DNA of 64,000 nt from Candidatus Latescibacterota bacterium (GTDB lineage: Bacteria > Latescibacterota > UBA2968 > UBA8231), in assembly GCA_965206595.1 (NCBI GenBank), contig OZ242214.1:6400001-6464000 (forward strand), written 5' to 3'. A program made the position numbers and the translations under genes. The notes below the pieces were generated by a model. The model did no database searches, had not been told where the DNA came from, and was given only the letters and a program-made list of their open reading frames with translations. How positions within the stretch are numbered: the stretch's first letter is position 1; each line of letters begins with the position of its first letter. Positions 11,740 to 63,894 of this stretch are shown in pieces.

Positions 11740-11824
11740 TGGTGCGGAAGCGGGGATTCGAACCCCGACGCCCGAAGGCACTGCCCCCTCAAGACAGCGT
11801 GTCTACCAATTCCACCACTTCCGC
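11740..11824 (-). tRNA. tRNA-Leu(GAG)
   Basis: GCGGAAGTGGTGGAATTGGTAGACACG-CTGTC-TT-GAG-GG-GGCAG, long variable arm, GGTTCGAATCC, CCA end. Confidence 0.96.
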
Positions 11825-19763: not shown

Positions 19764-19840
19764 GGCGGCGTAGCTCAGTTGGTTAGAGCAGTGGAATCAT
19801 AATCCACGTGTCGGGGGTTCGAGTCCCTCCGCCGCTACCA
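19764..19840 (+). tRNA. tRNA-Met(CAT), probably elongator
   Basis: GGCGGCGTAGCTCAGTTGGTTAGAGCA-GTGGA-AT-CAT-AA-TCCAC...GGTTCGAGTCC...CGCCGCTACCA; lacks the initiator GGG/CCC anticodon stem. Confidence 0.93.
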
Positions 19841-35011: not shown

Positions 35012-36265
35012 ATGGCTGGCGCGGAATCCGCTTCCCCCATGCTCCCGGGTCGAACTGTGAAATGGACGGTTCACGGCCTGCTTACGGATTTTATGCGAGC
35101 CGGGAGCAGCGGCCGGCCGCACACATTCGGTAACCCTGCCGCTCTCTGCGCGGGCAGCGGCAAAACACAATGGCAGCAGACCGAAACGAACCTCCCCGGC
35201 AGGGTACCCACTGTCCCGCGGCTGGTTTCCCTCCTTCTTCTGCTGTTCCAGGCCCCGGACCTGACGCCGGCAGCCGCCCGGGAGGGCTCTGCAGCCGAAT
35301 GGCAGAAGGGGATCACCTTTACACACCTGTACCGCCCGCACAACAACCTCCTGTCGGAGCGGTCCCGGCAGTCGCTCGAACATCTGCGCTCTCAGGTCGG
35401 GGCGGAGTGGATCGCCCTGAACCCGTTCGGGTACCAGCGCGACGTCGACGATCCGAACGTCCTGTTCGGAGGGGACCCTCCCGACGCACACCTGCGCCAC
35501 GCCATCGCCGGCGCCCACGAGCTCGGCCTCAAGGTGATGCTCAAACCGCACATCTGGCTGCACCACCAGAGCGCCGAGCGCTGGCGGGGGACCATCGCCA
35601 TGAAAACCGAGGAGGACTGGGAAGCCTGGTTCCGGAGCTACGGGAACTTCATCCTCCACTACGCCGCCATCGCCCAGGCGGAGGGCGTCGAGATCTTCTG
35701 CATCGGAGTCGAGCTGGCGCGCACCGCGATCGAGCGGGAGCAGGACTGGCGGGCCCTCGTCGCCGAGATCCGGAAGCGCTACCGCGGGCGGCTGGTGTAC
35801 GCGGCCAACTGGTGGCAGGAGTACGACCGCATCGGTTTCTGGGACGCCCTCGACTACATCGGCGTCAACGCCTTCTTCCCGCTCAGCGACGTCCCCGACC
35901 CCTCGGCCGAGACGCTGCGCGCCAACGCCGAGGCGGTCGCCGGGGAGTTGGCGCTGCTGCATCAGCGCACCGGCAAGCCGGTGCTGTTCACGGAGGTCGG
36001 ATTCAAGAGCACCCGCGGCACCAGCATGCGGCCCTGGCTGTGGCCGCGGCGGTTCGAGCCGGAAATCGACCTCGAGGCCCAGTCGCGCTGCTACGAGGCG
36101 GTGCTGCAGGTCTTCTGGAGCAAACCTTGGTTTTCCGGGATGTACTGGTGGAAGTGGTTCAGCGACCTCGACCGCGGCGGCGCCTCCCACCCCGGGTTCA
36201 CCCCGCGAAGAAAGCCGGCGGAGTCCGTCCTCGCAGAGTGGTACCGCAAACCGAGGCCGAGATGA
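35012..36265 (+). CDS. Glycoside hydrolase family 113-like TIM barrel protein
   Basis: GLKVMLKPHIW, IGVEL, VYAANW, GVNAFFPL, FTEVGF, YWWKW; real start probably near 35200. Confidence 0.8.
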   Translation: MAGAESASPMLPGRTVKWTVHGLLTDFMRAGSSGRPHTFGNPAALCAGSGKTQWQQTETNLPGRVPTVPRLVSLLLLLFQAPDLTPAAAREGSAAEWQKGITFTHLYRPHNNLLSERSRQSLEHLRSQVGAEWIALNPFGYQRDVDDPNVLFGGDPPDAHLRHAIAGAHELGLKVMLKPHIWLHHQSAERWRGTIAMKTEEDWEAWFRSYGNFILHYAAIAQAEGVEIFCIGVELARTAIEREQDWRALVAEIRKRYRGRLVYAANWWQEYDRIGFWDALDYIGVNAFFPLSDVPDPSAETLRANAEAVAGELALLHQRTGKPVLFTEVGFKSTRGTSMRPWLWPRRFEPEIDLEAQSRCYEAVLQVFWSKPWFSGMYWWKWFSDLDRGGASHPGFTPRRKPAESVLAEWYRKPRPR

Positions 36266-36779
36266 ACTGTGTGCCTTCTGCAGCCCCGGGGGCCTGAACG
36301 CCGGGGACGCCCGCTCAACTGCGAGCTGGTACTCCCCCGCCAGCTCCGCTTCGATCCGGAACCGAGGTCTTGAGGACCGCCAGGGCCGCGGGATACACCA
36401 GGCCATGGACGAGGGAGGGCGAAGCAGGCCCTTTGGGATTCGCGCGGAACCGCGGCCCTGGCTCGAACTTCACGATACACAGCTTCACCGACGAGGAGCT
36501 TCCCCGCTCCCGGAAAACGCCTGGGCGAACAGCTGACAATCGATCCGGGTACTGCCGGGTCGGCTCTTCCAAAGAGTTCCAGCCCACCAGGGGAAAGCCT
36601 TTCGTTCCCCTGCGGAACATCTTTCCCACCCCGGCCGGCAGGCCTTCACCCGCGAGTTTCCACACACCCACCATATGCGGGGCCCCTCCGGCCGGTCGCC
36701 CCCAGATCCGGAGGTCTTCCCAGCATCAGATCCGCATTGTTCCCCGAAACGGTGGTTGTATTCCATCGGTCTCGACGCA

Positions 36780-36795
36780 TGGCACGCGGTTTGCC
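36780..36795 (+). promoter_or_regulatory. sigma54 (-24/-12) promoter with no downstream ORF
   Basis: TGGCAC-GCGGT-TTGC, exact GG-N10-GC spacing. Confidence 0.7.
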
Positions 36796-36805
36796 GGAGG
36801 GAACC

Positions 36806-36912
36806 CAGATCCATCTCCTCCTGTGGTTCGGGATCCGAAGGCAGAGTCTCCCCTTCGCATCCATCTGCAACTCCTCTCGCAGATGGAGCCTTCGGATCCC
36901 GCTTTTTTTTTT
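36806..36912 (+). ncRNA. Candidate sigma54-dependent small RNA
   Basis: Between the sigma54 box and a 14-bp stem (36829-42/36888-901) followed by T10; inner 9-bp hairpin; three CUCC motifs in unpaired regions. Confidence 0.55.
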
Positions 36913-37525
36913 ACGATTCCTGGCGCCAGGCGGGAAACAGCTCCTGCCGGATTCCCAGCAGGTTGAGAATGCGTCCGGCCATGAAGTCGGCCAGATCGTC
37001 GAACGATTTGGGCTTCTGGTAGAAGGCCGGCATGGCGGGAACCACGGTAGCGCCGGCCTCGGCGAGCGCCGTAAGGTTGCGCAGCTGGATCAGGTTCAGC
37101 GGGGTCTCTCGCGGCACCAGGATCAGCGGCCGCCGCTCCTTCAGGGCGACGTCGGCGGCGCGCTCGATCAGGTTGGAGGAGGAGCCGCAGGCGATCGCTG
37201 CGAAGGTCTTCGCCGAACAGGGAATGACCACCATCCCGTCCAACGCCACCGAGCCGCTGGCGAGCGCCGATGTCAGGTCGTTGACCCCGTACTCGACGAG
37301 AGTGCCCGCAGCGACGTCGTCTCCGTACAGTCGCTGGAGAAACTGCTGCACCGACTCCTTGTCGGGCTTCAGGCCCATCTCTTCGTGCAGGATGTAGCGC
37401 CCGTACCGCGACAGTACCAGGTGGGCCTCATGGCCACCCTGCAGCAGGGCGCGCAGGAAGCGGCAGGCGTAGATGCCGCCGCTCGCACCGGTGACGGCAA
37501 CGGCGATTCTCCTGGTTTCACTCAT
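36911..37525 (-). CDS. ubiX: Flavin prenyltransferase UbiX
   Basis: [44 protein letters not shown]. Confidence 0.95.
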
Positions 37526-39545
37526 CGGCTTCGCCTTTACGACTCCCCGGTCCCTGCTGGTTCGCGGCACCGGCCCGCAGGGTCTCGATGATGGCGTCGA
37601 CGTCGTAGACGCAGCCGCCCCAGGTGCCGCCGCCGACGTTCTGGAGCGCCGCCCACAGCCTCGTGTCGTCAGGCAGTTCCTCCTCGGCGGCAAGGTCGGG
37701 GCGCGGTGGGCGCTGCCGCAGCACCTCTTCCCCGCGCCCGGCTCCGAACTCGACCCCGGCTTCGCCGACGAGGTCGAGGCGTCCGCGCAGCCCGCGGGTG
37801 TCGATCTCGATGCCGACCAAGTCCCCGTCCCGCAGCTTGCCGAGCGGTCCGCCGCCCAGGGCCTCGGGTCCGATGTGGCCGACGCAGGCACCGGTCGAGA
37901 ACCCGGAGAAACGCGCGTCGGTCAGGACCGCCACCCGGCTTCCGTAGTCGAGGTACTTCAGCGCCGTCGTCACCTGGGCGATCTCCTCCATGCCGGTGCC
38001 CAAGGGGCCGCAGCTCAGCAGCACCATCACGTCCCCGGGCTCGATCCGCTGCGCCTTGAGGGCGGCGACCGCGGCGCGCTCGGTAGTAAATATCTTCGCC
38101 GGTCCTGTGTGCCGGTAACAGCCCTCTCCGTCGAGCACTGCCGGGTCGATCGACGTGCTCTTCACCACCGATCCCTCCGGCGCCAGGTTGCCGCGCGGGA
38201 AGCAGACGGTGCTGGTCAGGCCTTTGCCGCGGGCAGCTTCCGGCGACATGATCACCTCGTCCGGGTCGACGCCGTCGGCCGCGCGCAACACCTCCCTGAA
38301 GCGGGCACGGCGCTCGCTGTTCTCCCACCAGTCGAGGTTCTCCCCGAGCGGCTTTCCGGTCGCGGTCAGGGCCTCTTCCTCGAGCAGCCCGAGGGCGCGC
38401 AGGTGCAGCATCACCTCCGGCACCCCTCCAGCGAGGAAGGCGCGCACGGTCGGGTGGTACTGCGGTCCGTTCGGCAGCACGTCGACGAGGCGGGGAACCA
38501 GGCGGTTGAGGCGGTCCCAGTCCTCGACGGTAGGGCGCGGTCGCCCGGCGGCGTAGGCGATCGCCGGAACGTGCAGGATCAGGTTGGTCGAGCCGCCGAA
38601 GGCGGCGTGGGTGACCATGGCGTTGTGGAACGCCGCATCGGTCAGCAGGTCCCGCGAGGCGATCCCGGCACTTTCCAACGCCCTCACTGCCCGCGCCGTG
38701 CGCGTCGCCATGTCGTACCACACCGGTTCCCCGGAAGGAGCGAGGGCGGCGTGCGGCAGGGTCAGCCCGAGCGCCTCGGCGACGACCTGCGAGGTCGCGG
38801 CGGTGCCGAGAAACTGGCAGCCGCCCCCGGCGGTGGCGCAGGCCCGGCAGCCGTAGTCGTTGACCTCGTCGATGGTGATCTCGCCGTGGGCGAGGCGCAC
38901 CCCGACCGATTGGATCTTGCCGGCGTCTTCACCGTGCTCCGGGGGCAGGGTGACCCCCCCGGGGATCACGGCGACTGGAAGGTCGCGGGTCCCGGCGAGG
39001 GCGATCAGCACCGCCGGCAGCCCCTTGTCGCAGGTGCCGACGCCGATGACGCCGCGGCGAGTCGGCAGCGAGCGGATCAGGCGCCTCATCACCAGGGCGG
39101 CGTCGTTGCGGTACGGCAGGCTGTCGAACATCCCCGCGGTCCCCTGGGAGCGGCCGTCGCACGGGTCGGAGCAGTAGGCGGCGAACGGAATCCCCCCCAG
39201 CCGCCGGATCTCGCGGGCGGCCGCCTCCATCAGCAGCCCCACCTCCCAGTGGCCGGTGTGGTAGCCGAGAGCGACCGGGGAACCGTCCGGCGCCCGGATC
39301 CCCCCCATGGTGCTGATGATGAGGAACTCGCTGCGCCCCAGCTCCGAGGGGTCCCAGCCCATGCCGGCGTTCTGGCTGTAAGCGAAGATGTCGCCGCTCG
39401 GGGAGCCGGTCACCTGCTCGATCTGCAGCGGCAGCCTGCCCTCCGGCCCCGGCGCCCGGGTGCGCACCTCGAATACGTCGTCTCGGGAGGGGGCCTCGAC
39501 GATCTGCTCGAACCCCGGAAGCTGTCCGTTGCGGTTTTGCGTCAT
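37518..39545 (-). CDS. YjhG/YagF-type sugar-acid (xylonate) dehydratase, IlvD/Edd family
   Basis: [54 protein letters not shown]. Confidence 0.92.
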
Positions 39546-43799: not shown

Positions 43800-43921
43800 A
43801 ATCGTTCTGTCTGTGGGGAGTGAGGGCAGCGAGAGCTTCCGCCGCGGTTCGAATTGGGATCGGCGGTCGCCTGGCGGCGTCCGCAACCATCGCAAAAGTA
43901 TATCCCCCGGGAGGGGGTGGG

Positions 43922-44671
43922 TCAATCGGATTTGCGGCCCTGGTAGACGGCGCAGATACCCAGGGTCAGGGCGGTCGCCTTCGTGTCGGTGAACCCGGCC
44001 GCTTCCATCAGCTCGAGGAACCCCTTCCCCTGCGGAAAGCTGCCGACCGAGCGCGGCAGGTAGGAATAGGCCTCCCTGTTGCCGGAGATCAGCCCGCCGA
44101 CGAGCGGCAGCACGCGGTGGAAGTAGAAGCCGTAGAGCTGGCGGAACCCCGGCAGGGTCGGCTCGGTGAACTCGAGCACGATCACCTCGCCGCCGGGCCG
44201 CAGAACGCGCTCAGCCTCGGCGAGGCCGGCGCCGAGGCTGCCGAAGTTGCGCGCCCCGAAGGCGACGGTGACGAGGTCGAAGCAGCGGTCGCGGAAGGGC
44301 AGCATCTCCGCGTCCCCCGCCATCAGGACGGGGCCCGTTTTGCCTGCCCCCCCGAGCTTGGTTCGGGCGATGCGGACCATGTCGATGGCGACATCCACCC
44401 CGACGACCCGCCCGGGAGCGAGGCGCCCGGCGGCGCGCGCGAAATCCCCGGTGCCGGTGGCGAGGTCGAGGACCCGGGCGGGGCCTCGGCGGCGCACCGC
44501 GGCAAGGGCCCGGCGGCGCCAGTACAGGTCGACGCCGCAGCTCAGCAGGTGGTTGAGCAGATCGTAGCGCCCGGCAATGGCGTTGAACATCTGCTGAATT
44601 CGCCGCTTGCGAGCCCGTACCAATTCCGTATCGTCAGCCACGACCGCCCCGTTGAACGTGTTGAACCTCAT
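43922..44671 (-). CDS. ubiE: Demethylmenaquinone methyltransferase UbiE/MenG
   Basis: MFNAIAGRYDLLNHLLS, LDLATGTGD, VAFGARN, YSYLPRSV. Confidence 0.93.
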   Translation of the reverse strand: MRFNTFNGAVVADDTELVRARKRRIQQMFNAIAGRYDLLNHLLSCGVDLYWRRRALAAVRRRGPARVLDLATGTGDFARAAGRLAPGRVVGVDVAIDMVRIARTKLGGAGKTGPVLMAGDAEMLPFRDRCFDLVTVAFGARNFGSLGAGLAEAERVLRPGGEVIVLEFTEPTLPGFRQLYGFYFHRVLPLVGGLISGNREAYSYLPRSVGSFPQGKGFLELMEAAGFTDTKATALTLGICAVYQGRKSD

Positions 44672-44711
44672 CGAGCCGCGGCAACCCTATCCCGCGGCAA
44701 GAGGCCTGTCA

Positions 44712-45500
44712 ATGAACCAAAGCAGTGGGCAAGAGCCCGGCGAGGGACGCAGCGAGCGGGAGATCCTGCTCGGCGACCGGATGGCCGCCCTCGGCCGGCT
44801 CGCCGCCTCGGTCGCCCACGAAGTCCGCAACCCCCTCGGCGCCATCGACATCCAGCTGCAGTTGCTGCAGGAGGAGCTGCGGGCAGGAGGCGGTACCGCG
44901 GAGCGCGCCGGCGAGCGCCTCGACACGGCGCGGGCGGAGCTGCGGCGGCTCGACAGGATCGTGCAGAACTTCCTGCGCTTCTCGCGCCCGCCGGCGCTAC
45001 ACCTCGCCCGGGTATCGCTAGCCGAGCTGCTGGCGCGGCTCCGCGAGCTGATCGAACCGGAGGCGCGCGAGCGCGGAATCGCCCTGGGGCTGCGCCTCGA
45101 CGAAGAGGGGGAGGCCGCGGTCATAGACGCCGACGAGAACCTGCTGAGTCAGGCGTTCCTCAACCTCCTGATCAACGCCCTGCAAGCCTGCGACGGCACC
45201 GGCGGGGAGCGCCGCCGCAGCGCCGCGGGGGTCGAGATCGGCCTGCGCGTCCCCGACGACCGCAGCGCCCTGGTGACCATCGGCGACCGCGGTTGCGGCA
45301 TACCGCGAGGCGATCTGGAGAGGATCTTCGAGTACTACTATACTACGAAGGACACGGGCACCGGACTGGGGCTCTCCATCGCCCAACGGATTGTCGACCA
45401 GCACCAGGGCAGCCTCGAAGTGGAGAGCGAGGAGGGAGCGGGAACCACGGTGTCCGTACGACTTCCCCTCACGGTTTCAGCGGAAAAACCACTCGGATGA
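44712..45500 (+). CDS. Histidine kinase (HisKA + HATPase only)
   Basis: VAHEVRNPL H-box, NLLINALQA, DRGCGI, YTTK..GTGLGL. Confidence 0.9.
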   Translation: MNQSSGQEPGEGRSEREILLGDRMAALGRLAASVAHEVRNPLGAIDIQLQLLQEELRAGGGTAERAGERLDTARAELRRLDRIVQNFLRFSRPPALHLARVSLAELLARLRELIEPEARERGIALGLRLDEEGEAAVIDADENLLSQAFLNLLINALQACDGTGGERRRSAAGVEIGLRVPDDRSALVTIGDRGCGIPRGDLERIFEYYYTTKDTGTGLGLSIAQRIVDQHQGSLEVESEEGAGTTVSVRLPLTVSAEKPLG

Positions 45501-46888
45501 AAGACCACAGCAACTCGCGGGCGCGCCTCCTCATCGCCGATGACGAGGTCTTCATCCGCGAGGGGCTGCAGGACGCCCTGCGGGAGCCGGGCCTCGACCT
45601 CCAGACCGCCGCGGACGGCCGCGAAGTGCGCCGCCGGCTGCGCAAGGGGGCCTTCGACGTCATCCTCCTCGACCTGCGCATGCCGGGGGTCTCCGGCATG
45701 GACCTGCTCGAGGAAATCCACGAGCAGCACCCGGAATCGAACGTCGTCATCCTCACAGCCCACGGCAGCGTCAACACCGCGGTCGAGGCGATGAAGAAGG
45801 GGGCCTTCGATTTCGTCACCAAGCCGGTCGACCTTACCCACGTCCGCCTCATCGTCAGCCGCGCCCTCGACCGCGTCCGGCTCGTACGCGAGAACCGCGA
45901 GCTGCACGACCGCCTCGGGCGCGGAGACAGCGACGACCCGTTCCGGCGCATCGTGCGCCGCAGCGCTTCCATGCAGCAGGCGACACGTACGGTAAAGCAG
46001 GTGGCCCTGTCCGACGTCCCGGTGCTGCTCAGGGGGGAGACCGGGTCCGGCAAGGAGCTGATCGCACGCACGATCCACGAGCGCAGCCGCCGGCGCGAGG
46101 GGCCGTTCGTTGCCGTCAACTGCGGCGGCTTCACCCAGGACCTGTTCGGCAGCGAGCTGTTCGGGCACAAGCGCGGGGCTTTCACAGGAGCCCACGTCGA
46201 CCGGCCGGGCCGCTTCGCGCTGGCCGAGAAGGGCACCCTGTTCCTCGACGAAGTCGGCGAAATTCCCCTGAAGAACCAGGTCGAGCTACTGCGCGCCCTC
46301 GAGAACCGCGAGTTCCAGCCGCTCGGCGACACCAAGGTCCACAAGGCGGACGTGCGCGTCATCGCCGCCACCAACCGCCACCTCGAAACCGCAGTCAGCG
46401 AGGGCGAGTTCCGCGAGGACCTCTTCTACCGCCTGAACGTCGTGCCGATCGAAGTCCCCCCTCTCAGGGAGCGGCGCGAGGACATCCCCCTGCTCGTCGA
46501 GACCTTCTTCGACGAGGCCTGCCGGGCCTACGATCAGCCCCGCAAGAAAGCCGGCAAGGAGGCCGTCGATCTCTTCGTCTCCTACTACTGGCCGGGAAAC
46601 GTGCGCGAGCTGCGCAACGTTATCCAGCGGCTGGTGATAACCTGCCCCGAGACCATCATCGAGCCGCAGCATCTGCGCGAGGCTCTGGGCGAGGCCGCGG
46701 TCGACCAGCCTGGCGCCGTAACGGGGGAATTCACCATCTCCCTCGGCTCCTCCATCGAGGACGTCGAAGCGGAGCTGATCCGGCAGACGCTGCAGCGGGT
46801 AACCTCCAACCGCCGCGAGGCCGCGGAGATGCTGGGAATCAGCGTGCGCTCCCTGCAGTACAAGCTCAAGCAGTACAAGCTGACCTGA
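45497..46888 (+). CDS. sigma54-dependent response regulator (NtrC/AtoC family)
   Basis: Receiver LIADD/LLDLRMP, GETGSGKE, GAFTGA, FLDEV, WPGNVREL, C-terminal HTH. Confidence 0.95.
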   Translation: MKDHSNSRARLLIADDEVFIREGLQDALREPGLDLQTAADGREVRRRLRKGAFDVILLDLRMPGVSGMDLLEEIHEQHPESNVVILTAHGSVNTAVEAMKKGAFDFVTKPVDLTHVRLIVSRALDRVRLVRENRELHDRLGRGDSDDPFRRIVRRSASMQQATRTVKQVALSDVPVLLRGETGSGKELIARTIHERSRRREGPFVAVNCGGFTQDLFGSELFGHKRGAFTGAHVDRPGRFALAEKGTLFLDEVGEIPLKNQVELLRALENREFQPLGDTKVHKADVRVIAATNRHLETAVSEGEFREDLFYRLNVVPIEVPPLRERREDIPLLVETFFDEACRAYDQPRKKAGKEAVDLFVSYYWPGNVRELRNVIQRLVITCPETIIEPQHLREALGEAAVDQPGAVTGEFTISLGSSIEDVEAELIRQTLQRVTSNRREAAEMLGISVRSLQYKLKQYKLT

Positions 46889-47027: not shown

Positions 47028-47043
47028 TGGCACCGAGTTTGCA
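47028..47043 (+). promoter_or_regulatory. sigma54 promoter upstream of the PTS-IIA/sigma70 operon
   Basis: TGGCAC-CGAGT-TTGCA. Confidence 0.8.
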
Positions 47044-47265: not shown

Positions 47266-47877
47266 ATGATTTTTAGCGACGCCCTGGACAGCGACGCAGA
47301 TTTTGCAGCAGACAGCCCTTCGGGGACCATCACCGCCATGCCCGGACTGCTCGAAAAGACCATGATGGTCCCCCGCCTCCGCTCCGATTCCAAGATCGGG
47401 GCCATCAAACAGCTCGTTGACCGCCTCTACCGCGGCGGGCTGCTCAACGACAGCCTCAGCTTCCTGCAGGCGGTTCTCGAACGGGAGAACCTCGACAGCA
47501 CGGTGATCGGAGGCACTATCGCCCTGCCCCATGCCCGCGCCCGCAGCGTCACCGGCCTGGGGATGGCGTTGGGTGTGTGCGAGGAGCCGATCTACTATCC
47601 GAGCGGCGACGACCTCTGCGCGGTGCGGGCGGTCTGCGTGATCGCCGTGCCGATGGACTCACCGCGCCAGTACCTCGGTCTGCTCTCCCACCTCGCCTGG
47701 GCTTTCGGCGACAGGGACTTCATGCACCGCCTTCTCGCCGCCCCCTCGGCGCAGGGGATGAGCGAGTTGATGTCGGCCCGGTTGAGCGTTGCCGGCGAGA
47801 GAACAGCGGCCAACGTCGGGGGATTCCTCCCCGCAGGCGCCGCCGTTGCGGGCGCGAGCCCGGGAGCCGGCGGATAG
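47266..47877 (+). CDS. PTS EIIA (PtsN/Fru-type) domain protein
   Basis: VLERE..DSTVIGGTIALPHAR with the phospho-His retained; start may be 47338. Confidence 0.85.
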   Translation: MIFSDALDSDADFAADSPSGTITAMPGLLEKTMMVPRLRSDSKIGAIKQLVDRLYRGGLLNDSLSFLQAVLERENLDSTVIGGTIALPHARARSVTGLGMALGVCEEPIYYPSGDDLCAVRAVCVIAVPMDSPRQYLGLLSHLAWAFGDRDFMHRLLAAPSAQGMSELMSARLSVAGERTAANVGGFLPAGAAVAGASPGAGG

Positions 47878-48729
47878 ATGGCCTACTCCAAAAGATTCAG
47901 GGAAGAAGAAGGCTCGCTACGCCTCTATTTCGAGGACCTCGGCGATTCGACCCCGCTGACGCGGGAACGGGAGGTCGAGCTCTCGGAGCGGATCAAGGCG
48001 GGAGACCTGCAGGCCCGGAACGAGCTGGTGCAGGCGAATCTCCGCTTCGTCATCGACGTCGCCAAGCAGTACCAGAACCGAGGCCTGGGATTGTCCGACC
48101 TGATCAGCGCCGGAAACCTCGGGCTGATGAGGGCCGCGGAGCGTTTCGACGGCGAGCGCGGCTTCAAGTTCATCTCCTACGCCGTCTGGTGGATCAGGCA
48201 GTCGATCCAGCAGGCGATCGCCGACCACGGCCGCACCGTGCGCCTGCCCCTCGACAAGCTCGCCCTGCTCAAGAACATCCGCAAAGCGTCCATGCGGCTC
48301 GGCACCGATCGCGAGTCCGAGCCGTACATTGAGGAGATCGCCCAGGAGCTCGAACTGCCCGAGGAGGATGTCCTCGACGCGATTCTGAGCGCCCGCAGCG
48401 TGCGCTCGCTGGACGAGAGCTTCGAAGAGGACGGGGACCGCGGCCTCCTGAGCGTCCTCGTCGACGAGAGTCAGGTCTCGCCGGACTCCGACCTGATGGA
48501 GGACTCGTCGCGCAGCCGGATAGAGGAGATCCTCGCCAGCCTCGACGAGCGCGAGCTGCTCATCATCAGGCTGTACTACGGGTTCGGCGGCAACGAAGGA
48601 ATGAGCCTGGAGAAGATCGGCGGGCGCTTGAACCTGACCAGGGAGCGGGTCCGGCAGCTCAAGGAACGCGCCCTTAACAAGCTGCGGCATCCCAGCCGCT
48701 ACAACGCGCTGATGGCGGTCTGCGACTAA
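47878..48729 (+). CDS. RpoD/RpoS-like alternative sigma70 factor lacking region 1.1
   Basis: LVQANLRFV, DLISAGNLGL, KFISYAVWWIRQ, LTRERVRQ. Confidence 0.93.
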   Translation: MAYSKRFREEEGSLRLYFEDLGDSTPLTREREVELSERIKAGDLQARNELVQANLRFVIDVAKQYQNRGLGLSDLISAGNLGLMRAAERFDGERGFKFISYAVWWIRQSIQQAIADHGRTVRLPLDKLALLKNIRKASMRLGTDRESEPYIEEIAQELELPEEDVLDAILSARSVRSLDESFEEDGDRGLLSVLVDESQVSPDSDLMEDSSRSRIEEILASLDERELLIIRLYYGFGGNEGMSLEKIGGRLNLTRERVRQLKERALNKLRHPSRYNALMAVCD

Positions 48730-50303: not shown

Positions 50304-50332
50304 TTGACATCCTCCGGATGCGTCCATATCCT
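50304..50332 (+). promoter_or_regulatory. sigma70 promoter of the GAF-sigma54 activator
   Basis: TTGACA, 17 bp, TATCCT. Confidence 0.7.
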
Positions 50333-50337
50333 GGAAT

Positions 50338-50353
50338 ACTACATTTTTGTAGT
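50338..50353. promoter_or_regulatory. Palindromic operator (KACA-N4-TGTM box) over the predicted +1
   Basis: ACTACA-TTTT-TGTAGT. Confidence 0.65.
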
Positions 50354-50428
50354 CAATTTTGTTTGAATCGACGATTTTGGCGCTTCGCCGAAAGTCGCAC
50401 CGTTACCTCTACGGAAAGGTGGCCTGTC

Positions 50429-51970
<1,542 letters not shown>

Positions 51971-52264: not shown

Positions 52265-52280
52265 TGGCACCAAGTTTGCA
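52265..52280 (+). promoter_or_regulatory. sigma54 promoter of amtB
   Basis: TGGCAC-CAAGT-TTGCA. Confidence 0.88.
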
Positions 52281-62180: not shown

Positions 62181-63894
62181 ATGGCACGAACACTGGACCG
62201 GCGCGCCTACACCGACATGTACGGACCGACCACCGGGGACCGGGTCCGCCTCGGCGACACCGCGCTCGAGGTGGTAGTCGAAGAGGACGCCACCCTTTAC
62301 GGCGAGGAGTGCAAGTTCGGCGGCGGCAAGGTGCTGCGCGACGGCATGGGGCAGGCCGCCGGGGCGACCGGGGAGGAAGCCCTCGACCTGCTGATCACCA
62401 ACGCCCTCGTCATCGACCACGGCGGCATCCGCAAGGCGGACGTCGGCATCAAGGGGGGCCGCATCCTCGGGGTCGGCAAGGCCGGCAACCCCGATATCAT
62501 GCCGGCCGTCGATGCCGGGATGGTCGCCGGGGTGACCACGGAGGTGATCGCCGGCGAGGGGCTGATCCTGACCGCGGGGGCGCTCGACGTCCACGTCCAT
62601 TTCATCTGCCCGCAGCAGGTGGAGGAAGCGGTCGCCTCCGGGATCACGACGATGATCGGCGGCGGCACCGGTCCGGCCACCGGCACCAACGCCACCACCT
62701 GCACCCCGGGGGCCTTCCACCTCGAGACCATGCTCAGGGCGAGCGACGCCTGGCCGTTGAACTTCGGCTTCCTCGGCAAGGGAAACTCCTCCTTCCCGGA
62801 GGGGCTGCGCGAACAGGTCCGGGCCGGGGCCTGCGGTCTCAAGCTGCACGAGGACTGGGGCACCACCCCCGCGGCCATCGACACCTGCCTCTCCGTGGCC
62901 GAGGAGGAGGACGTCCAGGTCGCCATCCACACCGACACCCTCAACGAGTCCGGCTTCGTCGAGCAGTCGCGGCAGGCGTTCAAGGGCCGCACCATCCACA
63001 CCTACCACACGGAAGGGGCCGGGGGCGGGCACGCCCCGGACATCATACGGCTGTGCGGAGAGGCGAACGTGCTCCCCTCCTCGACCAATCCGACGCGGCC
63101 CTTCACGGTCAACACCATCGACGAGCACCTCGACATGCTGATGGTCTGCCACCACCTCGACAGGAACATCCCCGAGGACGTCGCCTTCGCCGAAAGCCGC
63201 ATCCGCAAAGAGACCATCGCCGCCGAGGACATCCTCCACGACATCGGGGCGTTCTCCATCATCGCCTCGGACAGCCAGGCCATGGGACGGGTAGGCGAGG
63301 TCGTCTGCCGGACCTGGCTAGACCGCCCACAAGATGAAGCTGCAGCGCGGCCCCCTTGCCGGGGACCGGGGGACCGGCGCCGACAACCTCAGGGTGAGAC
63401 GCTACATCGCCAAGTACACCATCAACCCGGCGATCGCCCACGGCGTCAGCCGCCACGTCGGCTCGGTCGAGGCGGGCAAGCTCGCCGACCTCGTGCTCCG
63501 GAAGCCGGCCTGCTTCGGGTCGCGGCCGGAAATAGTCGTCAAGGGCGGGGTCATCGCCTGGTCCCAGATGGGGGATGCCAACGCCTCGATCCCGACCCCC
63601 GAGCCGGTCCTTCCCAGGCCGATGTTCGGCGCCTTCGGCAACGCCATAGGTCGGACGTCCCTGAGCTTCGTCTCGCGGAACGGAGCCGAGGCCGCCGCCG
63701 GGTACAGGCTTGCAAAGGAGGTCGCCCCGGTCGAGTCCTGCCGGGGGCTGGAGAAGAGGGACATGATCCTCAACGACCTCACCCCGGAGATCGAGGTCGA
63801 CCCGGAGACCTACGAGGTGCGCGCCGACGGAGAGGTGCTGACCTGCGAGCCCGCGGCCAAGCTGCCCCTCGCCCAGCTCTACAACCTCTTCTGA
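62181..63894 (+). CDS. ureC: Urease alpha subunit, frameshifted at ~63319
   Basis: [48 protein letters not shown]; TGG CTAG ACC has an extra T relative to W-Q-T; continues [10 protein letters not shown]...LAQLYNLF. Confidence 0.95.

Follow-up and report, generated by a model that had tools for sequence, protein, structure and literature searches.

The 64,000-nucleotide (nt) stretch of contig OZ242214.1 analyzed here (the window), from a Candidatus Latescibacterota bacterium that is represented solely by metagenome assemblies and whose genome is assembled as a single contig of 7.05 Mb with 64% G+C, includes a gap of ~640 nt without a credible gene. The gap lies between a GH113 glycoside hydrolase gene (35012-36265, + strand) and a convergent gene for a UbiX-type flavin prenyltransferase (36911-37510, - strand; Pfam Flavoprotein, 6.9e-43), whose TAA stop codon occupies 36911-36913 and which is a neighbor and no part of the element in question. 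Within this gap, positions 36780-36912 of the + strand carry a promoter of the sigma-54 type followed by the sequence of a predicted structured small RNA (sRNA) of ~105 nt. Three mechanically called open reading frames (ORFs) that overlap the site were tested, with no Pfam match, and within the RNA itself no ORF keeps its position or frame among relatives. As judged from the sequence and its relatives, the site is very probably an independent gene for an sRNA.

The promoter, TGGCAC-GCGGT-TTGC (TGGCACGCGGTTTGC), is an exact consensus match at 36780-36794 (+), with the -24 GG dinucleotide at 36781-36782 and the -12 GC at 36793-36794, and it sits where the initial annotation had described a perfect TGGCAC-N5-TTGC box facing a region without a credible + strand gene. 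Three exact boxes are found in the window where 0.08 are expected, a count reached by 1 of 100 shuffles, and with one mismatch tolerated there is no enrichment (4 vs 3.36 expected); since the whole genome holds 23 exact boxes, a single box is weak evidence alone. A -24/-12 box is, in addition, present upstream of the RNA in all 37 other genomes in which the RNA was found: in 31 it is exact (TGGCAC-N5-TTGC, same strand, at most 220 nt upstream), and in the remaining six it carries one mismatch (GGGCAC, TGGTAC or TGGCAT) at the usual distance, with an N5 spacer that varies freely among relatives. Because the covariance model used to recognize these relatives spans the hairpin only, the promoter serves as an independent test of the RNA. 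Furthermore, a CAGA(C/U) motif is conserved ~11 nt past TTGC, which fits a fixed transcription start near 36806, and the start predicted at that position thus agrees with both promoter geometry and sequence conservation.

The predicted RNA occupies ~36806-36912 (+), its start being set by the promoter geometry and CAGA(C/U) and its end by a run of T residues. The minimum free energy (MFE) fold begins with a weak 5' hairpin, SL1 (36808-36829), whose loop CUCCUCCU displays CUCCUCC at 36815-36821. The main hairpin (36829-36901), indicated by both folding and covariation, is built from a 14-base-pair (bp) outer helix formed by CGGGATCCGAAGGC (36829-36842) and GCCTTCGGATCCCG (36888-36901), a C-rich internal loop (36843-36859) with the tract CTCCCCTTC (RNA CUCCCCUUC) at 36848-36856, and a 9-bp inner hairpin (36860-36868 with 36879-36887, spanning 36860-36887) whose apical loop, AACTCCTCTC (RNA AACUCCUCUC), lies at 36869-36878 and contains CUCCUC. 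A single C separates the outer helix from the T10 run (36903-36912), which overlaps the ubiX stop codon. Stem, inner hairpin, CU tracts and U10 all proved to be where they had been placed before, as did the three exposed C/U-rich tracts (CUCCUCC, CUCCCCUUC and CUCCUC), which are presented by two hairpin loops and one internal loop.

On the + strand this RNA folds with -44.4 kcal/mol (z = -5.78), and none of 200 shuffles folds as well; the - strand folds as well or better (-49.9 kcal/mol, z = -6.85), so that folding energy does not choose the strand. The U-tract does bear on the choice: helix, C and T10 follow one another on the + strand, no T-run lies past the stem on the - strand, and the order fits + strand termination, as had been proposed. 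A G+C-rich stem followed by a U-run on the + strand is the makeup of an intrinsic terminator, and a simple terminator scan calls nothing at the site, since the stretch inside the outer helix far exceeds its 8-nt loop limit. The two other species of the genus have T9 and T8 at this place, and a T9 variant of the T10 run (window 36903) occurs in one DNA run (X4).

The helices are maintained by compensatory change. In a seed alignment of 12 sequences, made without a model, 6 of the 21 consensus pairs are compensatory; in a 32-sequence alignment (A2) the number rises to 15 of 21, with 98.3% of cells pairing, figures that are inflated because this second alignment was fitted to the model. None of 500 shuffles matched the values observed in the 32-sequence alignment, and sliding the partners by 1-3 columns left at most 4 compensatory pairs. 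As the seed alignment already co-varied, the covariation is not only a product of the model fit, and the initial annotation's suggestion to look for it among homologues downstream of ubiX was borne out in close relatives that keep the promoter as well. The apical CTCCTC is invariant in the 12-sequence seed and almost invariant overall, and in the MFE folds of 30 of 30 homologues 70% or more of the apical tract is unpaired. Other parts of the RNA vary more. Most short-form relatives, not all, have a 5' hairpin with a C/U-rich loop, which is missing in G004 and G020 and replaced by a GAAAGA-type loop in G010 and G029. Two architectures can be distinguished: the short form seen in this window, with the promoter 28-50 nt before the main hairpin, and a long form in which this distance is 82-148 nt and extra hairpins are present; in the long forms of genus g13, the inner CUCCUC hairpin is duplicated.

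Of 60 relatives searched by blastn with the 146-nt site, 12 gave a match, which in one case was false (L019, of family f2, E 4.8e-5, with neither hairpin nor promoter). The covariance model built from the 12-sequence seed (R1) scores 102.1 bits at the window site, the sole + strand copy in its own genome, where neither blastn nor R1 finds a second one; a 25-bit R1 match on the - strand is a shadow of the same hairpin. R1 recovers the RNA in 37 of the 75 other genomes of the family, representing 16 of 18 genera, always with one copy per genome. When the phylum was sampled evenly, R1 matched 35 of 63 family genomes and 1 of 87 others, and in this sole outsider (G038, family f3, 29.6 bits) the match is to a plain hairpin that no promoter precedes. 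An exact-pattern scan of the genomes of 185,579 species returned 115 stretches, and R1 confirms 16 of the 80 listed; the submitters labeled these records Candidatus Latescibacterota (7), Gemmatimonadota-type names (6), Handelsmanbacteria (1) and 'uncultured bacterium' (2). All 16 are metagenome-assembled genomes with differing labels, and the lineage is thus an uncultured one whose naming is unsettled. The occurrence of the RNA is patchy in genera g14 (4 of 31 genomes) and g18 (3 of 10). Among the genomes negative by R1, the box is missing from the syntenic place in G012, G031 and G074 and no ubiX match was obtained in G023, while in G019 (L187, genus g18) the exact TGGCACAGCCGTTGC is kept downstream of ubiX and is followed by a diverged C-rich RNA, which indicates that the family is wider than R1 shows. 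Among the genomes sampled, the RNA is confined to one family of uncultured bacteria.

Sequence conservation continues upstream of the promoter. An alignment of the 230 nt preceding it in 30 genomes defines a conserved control region (36560-36779, + strand), in which blocks of the type GGAAnnTTTTTC ... A..TTTT.CC align in all 30, the window copy beginning at ~36590, with more conserved blocks closer to the promoter. In this genus the blocks are G+C-shifted and the region lacks the AT-rich spacer of relatives, a spacer that may be IHF-like. Because g14 and g16 do not maintain an inverted repeat present in the blocks, these resemble sites for protein binding and not RNA structure, and the possibility that they form a hairpin terminator was rejected on the same ground. 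The region is hence described here as a candidate enhancer or activator-binding region. The block-0 pattern has a single occurrence in the whole genome, at the RNA locus, and the block-3 motif is confined to that locus in two relatives (G010 and G005), a search for it in G016, G004 and G020 having found nothing; blocks that occur at one locus only, here and in two relatives, define no regulon. Nor does the region upstream of the RNA share a motif with those of the genome's 22 remaining exact sigma-54 boxes, the only matches being 8-13 nt long and at chance level.

The genome encodes the machinery that such a promoter would need, namely one rpoN (a single Sigma54_DBD match) and at least 20 enhancer-binding proteins (20 Sigma54_activat matches), so that a conserved -24 GG/-12 GC box stands in a genome that encodes the sigma factor and proteins of the activator class, as expected for a sigma-54-dependent sRNA gene. 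No enhancer-binding protein gene adjoins the RNA; the nearest is of the response-regulator type, ~7 kb off, and precedes a sigma-54 box of its own. This second exact box of the window, at 47028-47042 (+; features 43820-46888 and 47266-48729), lies just past the response-regulator-type gene and precedes genes for a PTS EIIA-2 (PtsN-like) protein and a sigma-70-family sigma factor. The third, at 52265-52279 (+; features 50318-51970 and ATG 52357), follows the gene of a GAF-domain enhancer-binding protein and precedes an ammonium transporter gene whose ribosome-binding site is AAGGAG, an arrangement classic for nitrogen control. As both of these boxes follow enhancer-binding protein genes and precede the genes just named, the consensus looks functional in this organism. 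Outside the window, three enhancer-binding protein genes are near-identical around an internal GTG (G000:C1 near 520200, 6473221 and 6972728), which suggests a repeated, perhaps mobile, element.

The loops of the RNA also find a counterpart in the translation apparatus of the organism. Its 16S rRNA ends in ...GGATCACCTCCTTTCT / ...CACCTCCTTTCT, with the tail CCTCCTTTCT, and Shine-Dalgarno (SD) words peak at -14 to -9, with 0.098 per site at the first starts of 3091 long, GC3-filtered ORFs versus 0.012 at internal ATGs. The unpaired motifs are complementary to the SD sequence, of which the organism makes clear use. Regarding RNA-binding proteins, no Hfq was found in the genome, and CsrA was represented by 0 matches to PF02599 at E <=0.01 in the single contig, the control search being positive in three known genomes.

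From these elements we infer the transcription of the RNA, its activator, its pairing mechanism and its targets, which would be connected as follows. RNA polymerase with sigma-54 would bind the -24/-12 box, and an enhancer-binding protein, probably seated on the conserved upstream blocks, would open the promoter upon a signal. The transcript would begin near 36806 and end at the long hairpin and T10 that abut the convergent ubiX. Its three unpaired C/U-rich tracts resemble the 3' tail of the organism's 16S rRNA, and these loops would most likely pair, independently of Hfq, with the purine-rich SD regions of several mRNAs, by which binding of the 30S subunit would be blocked. The anti-SD step, which is consistent with SD usage and with loop complementarity, stands evenly balanced in our estimation; the complete account, a sigma-54-driven gene for an sRNA of ~105 nt that silences mRNAs by anti-SD pairing, comes out as somewhat probable and as the best explanation of the site.

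Several observations weigh against this account. A clear U-tract is lacking in many relatives, and the pairing figures of the larger alignment are, as mentioned, too favorable. The sequence of the outer helix is conserved far beyond the needs of pairing, as might be expected if a protein bound there or the RNA were processed at this point. Of the 38 genomes with the RNA, 16, from 8 genera, have an ORF for a small membrane protein that begins 11-34 nt past the hairpin. The specificity of pairing is left unexplained, since the invariant seed is only 6 nt long and fits any strong SD sequence. A duplex scan of 3089 roughly called starts of the own genome, itself biased by the SD-based choice of start codons, was non-specific at 64% G+C and gave no nameable target; the target at rank 6, an enhancer-binding protein gene, was rejected, the site being inside the coding region of its receiver domain. 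Finally, contigs from two metatranscriptome runs that shared 6% of words fall on parts of ubiX and of the ilvD-like gene, from a relative (37062-37308 and 37555-37900, at 90-99% identity), outside 36780-36912, and are uninformative either way for the RNA.

Some of these features would be at home in an RNA that sequesters a protein. Well-known parallels are CrcZ, which depends on sigma-54 and CbrB and titrates Hfq/Crc, and CsrB, which titrates CsrA. In the present case the C/U-rich loops would act as a sponge for a pyrimidine-binding RNA-binding protein: motif-bearing hairpins vary from 2 to 5 between genera and the inner hairpin is duplicated in g13, a pattern typical of RNA sponges; so short an invariant motif would not suffice for specific pairing, the sequence of the outer helix is kept beyond its pairing requirement, and in a genome without Hfq and CsrA another global RNA-binding protein may take the role. 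We nevertheless regard such a sponge, the foremost alternative to the pairing account, as unlikely, since there is no candidate protein and, in the contexts viewed, no conserved neighboring gene that encodes one. A similarly unlikely proposal is that of a global decoy, in which a sigma-54-switched RNA with three to five copies of the 16S anti-SD tail would act without gene specificity. Both are kept alive by the short seed, the over-conserved outer helix and the variable number of hairpins. If the decoy were real, it could compete globally with ribosomes for SD sites, shifting translation to SD-poor mRNAs, or alternatively soak up a pyrimidine-binding global RNA-binding protein in a lineage without Hfq and CsrA; the almost invariant GGGAUCCG.../...CGGAUCCC helix would then be the handle of that protein or of a nuclease. 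Repeated anti-SD loops are, however, no privilege of sponges, since a report on ar14/NfeR1 describes them likewise in an sRNA that pairs through multiple seeds (PMC10746234).

The ORFs that follow the RNA in some relatives evoke the question of whether it is a cis-acting element. They encode proteins of 33-71 amino acids with a basic N-terminus and one hydrophobic helix, and a purine-rich, SD-like tract lies ahead of them (examples are L024:1599-1802, L027:1622-1834 and L190:623-823); no Pfam family scores above its cut-off for them. The sigma-54-driven RNA could therewith be the 5' leader of a small membrane-protein gene, its CU tracts masking the ribosome-binding site of that gene, a rather improbable reading in our view, as is its corollary that the ORF was lost in this genus, leaving the RNA as a remnant or in a diminished role. 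The 16 nt past the helix hold 4.75 T on average where the ORF is present vs 7.09 where it is not, which suggests read-through. However, the ORF is missing in 22 of the 38 genomes with the RNA, the three of this genus among them, and these 22 keep promoter, structure and loops; in this genus the ORF-less state goes with a T8-T10 terminator. The promoter had been called an orphan in the initial annotation, a term that is correct for this genus and does not extend to the 16 genomes with a same-strand ORF. In addition, the small-protein family occurs in 26 of 76 family genomes and in 0 of 3 genomes of this genus (the best hmmsearch E-value in the own genome is 5.9, and no homologue was found there), and 0 of 8 unlinked paralogues of the ORF that were examined have a sigma-54 box or CU tracts upstream. 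Seven of these eight directly follow a conserved gene ending ...YNYSAVVEA...GGPFNP...YH. With the RNA as the constant part and the ORF as an optional one, the RNA must act on its own, and in some relatives that have the ORF it may serve in addition as a leader or as one part of a transcript with two functions.

The genomic surroundings invite a further explanation. ubiX is the final gene of a futalosine-type menaquinone operon (36911 to ~44671, - strand) that is syntenic across the family and comprises UbiE, two radical SAM MqnC/E-like (CofH/MqnC-type) proteins, an MqnD-like (VitK2_biosynth) protein, UbiA, an IlvD/Edd-like dehydratase and UbiX. In 17 contexts, an RsmB/F-type methyltransferase gene is located upstream of the RNA in all 17, GH113 sits between the two in 7, and ubiX is convergent and downstream in 15. 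This arrangement, the overlap of the T-run with the ubiX stop codon in this genus and the better fold of the - strand could all be accommodated if the element belonged to the operon, either as a 3' stabilizer of the - strand transcript or as a + strand RNA that works in antisense to the operon's 3' end or interferes with transcription there. It is very improbable that this is its role, given that the distance to ubiX ranges from 0 to ~800 nt, that genus g7 keeps the RNA though its downstream genes differ, that conservation is highest in the loops and promoter and not along the full antisense overlap, and that no U-tract lies past the stem on the - strand. The alternative raised in the initial annotation, a - strand ubiX 3' untranslated region whose loops bind CsrA/RsmA through the GGA present in the complement of the CU loops, is weaker still and can be considered extremely improbable in a genome without a CsrA family match and with conserved promoter and T-run both on the + strand.

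The sRNA gene thus preferred belongs to no Rfam family. The Rfam search proposed by the initial annotation assigned no family to the locus by gathering cut-off, and a search by E-value (E <=10) gave eight sub-threshold matches, the best being ar14 (RF02344; 25.7 bits, E 0.012, cut-off 58.8) and another being CcsR1 (RF02791; 11.6 bits, E 8.6, cut-off 65.3). At the loci of seven relatives, searched at E <=0.1, ar14 was not found and the only match was ar7, with 31.2 bits vs a cut-off of 60. Elsewhere in the window, Rfam gives 5_ureB_sRNA (RF02514) at 62334-62628 (- strand; 49.4 bits vs a gathering score of 40), probably antisense to a urease gene, and two tRNA genes are located at 11743-11824 (-) and 19764-19837 (+).

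The RNA represents a new sRNA family, absent from Rfam, in an uncultured lineage, and its mechanism is not of a new kind. Almost nothing is known about RNA-based regulation in the uncultured lineages of this group, and a search of full-text literature gave nothing relevant on sRNAs of Latescibacter*. Its seed alignment, covariance model, 38 members and conserved synteny make it a well-supported candidate Rfam family, with a readable input, in the sigma-54 promoter and its long conserved control region, and a readable output, in the anti-SD loops. The stand-alone forms and those trailed by a small ORF offer a natural comparison between versions of one RNA. To our knowledge, sigma-54-controlled riboregulation is known from Proteobacteria, Campylobacterota and Myxococcota, beyond which the present RNA would extend it.

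Known systems provide partial parallels to this RNA from three sides. As regards its promoter, Qrr1-5 of Vibrio (the Qrr/LuxO system), GlmY/GlmZ, CrcZ/CrcY and Pxr are sigma-54-dependent sRNA genes that likewise stand alone and are transcribed from a -24/-12 promoter with the help of an enhancer-binding protein. None of them, however, is among the eight Rfam matches at E <=10; they come from Proteobacteria or Myxococcota, and most need Hfq or another known protein, whereas the present genome is without Hfq and encodes no activator gene beside the RNA. As regards the loops, RoxS/RsaE, IsrR and LhrC use C-rich loops to pair with the G-rich ribosome-binding regions of many mRNAs without Hfq, and we know of no sigma-54 dependence for these or for 6C. 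The four are like the present RNA in their C-rich unpaired loops and unrelated to it in sequence, lineage and promoter type; 6C of Mycobacterium is presented as such a C-rich-loop sRNA in PMC6486639. A third parallel is that of CT-rich 'insulator' motifs downstream of sigma-54 promoters, which, according to a preprint (bioRxiv 10.1101/086108), pair with a nearby SD sequence and silence translation. This could describe the ORF-bearing relatives, but those insulators, as portrayed there, are unstructured, 3-5 nt long and at most 25 nt from the SD sequence, in contrast to the conserved, co-varying 70-nt hairpin found here, which in this genus has no downstream gene.

The closest likeness is to the alphaproteobacterial anti-SD sRNAs ar14/NfeR1 and CcsR1, which are likewise short, trans-acting RNAs with several hairpins and exposed C/U-rich anti-SD motifs. 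Each of the three hairpins of ar14 carries an unpaired CCUCCUCCC (PMC10746234); this 9-mer is absent from the RNA described here, where the motif is CUCCUC or CUCCCC and one tract lies in the internal loop of a long helix. The phyla differ as well, and so do the promoters, since the one given for NfeR1 in that report is without a sigma-54 signature and the one described here is a conserved sigma-54 promoter. By analogy, and as a member of none of these families, the RNA appears to resemble ar14/NfeR1, CcsR and the Gram-positive C-rich-loop sRNAs in function only.

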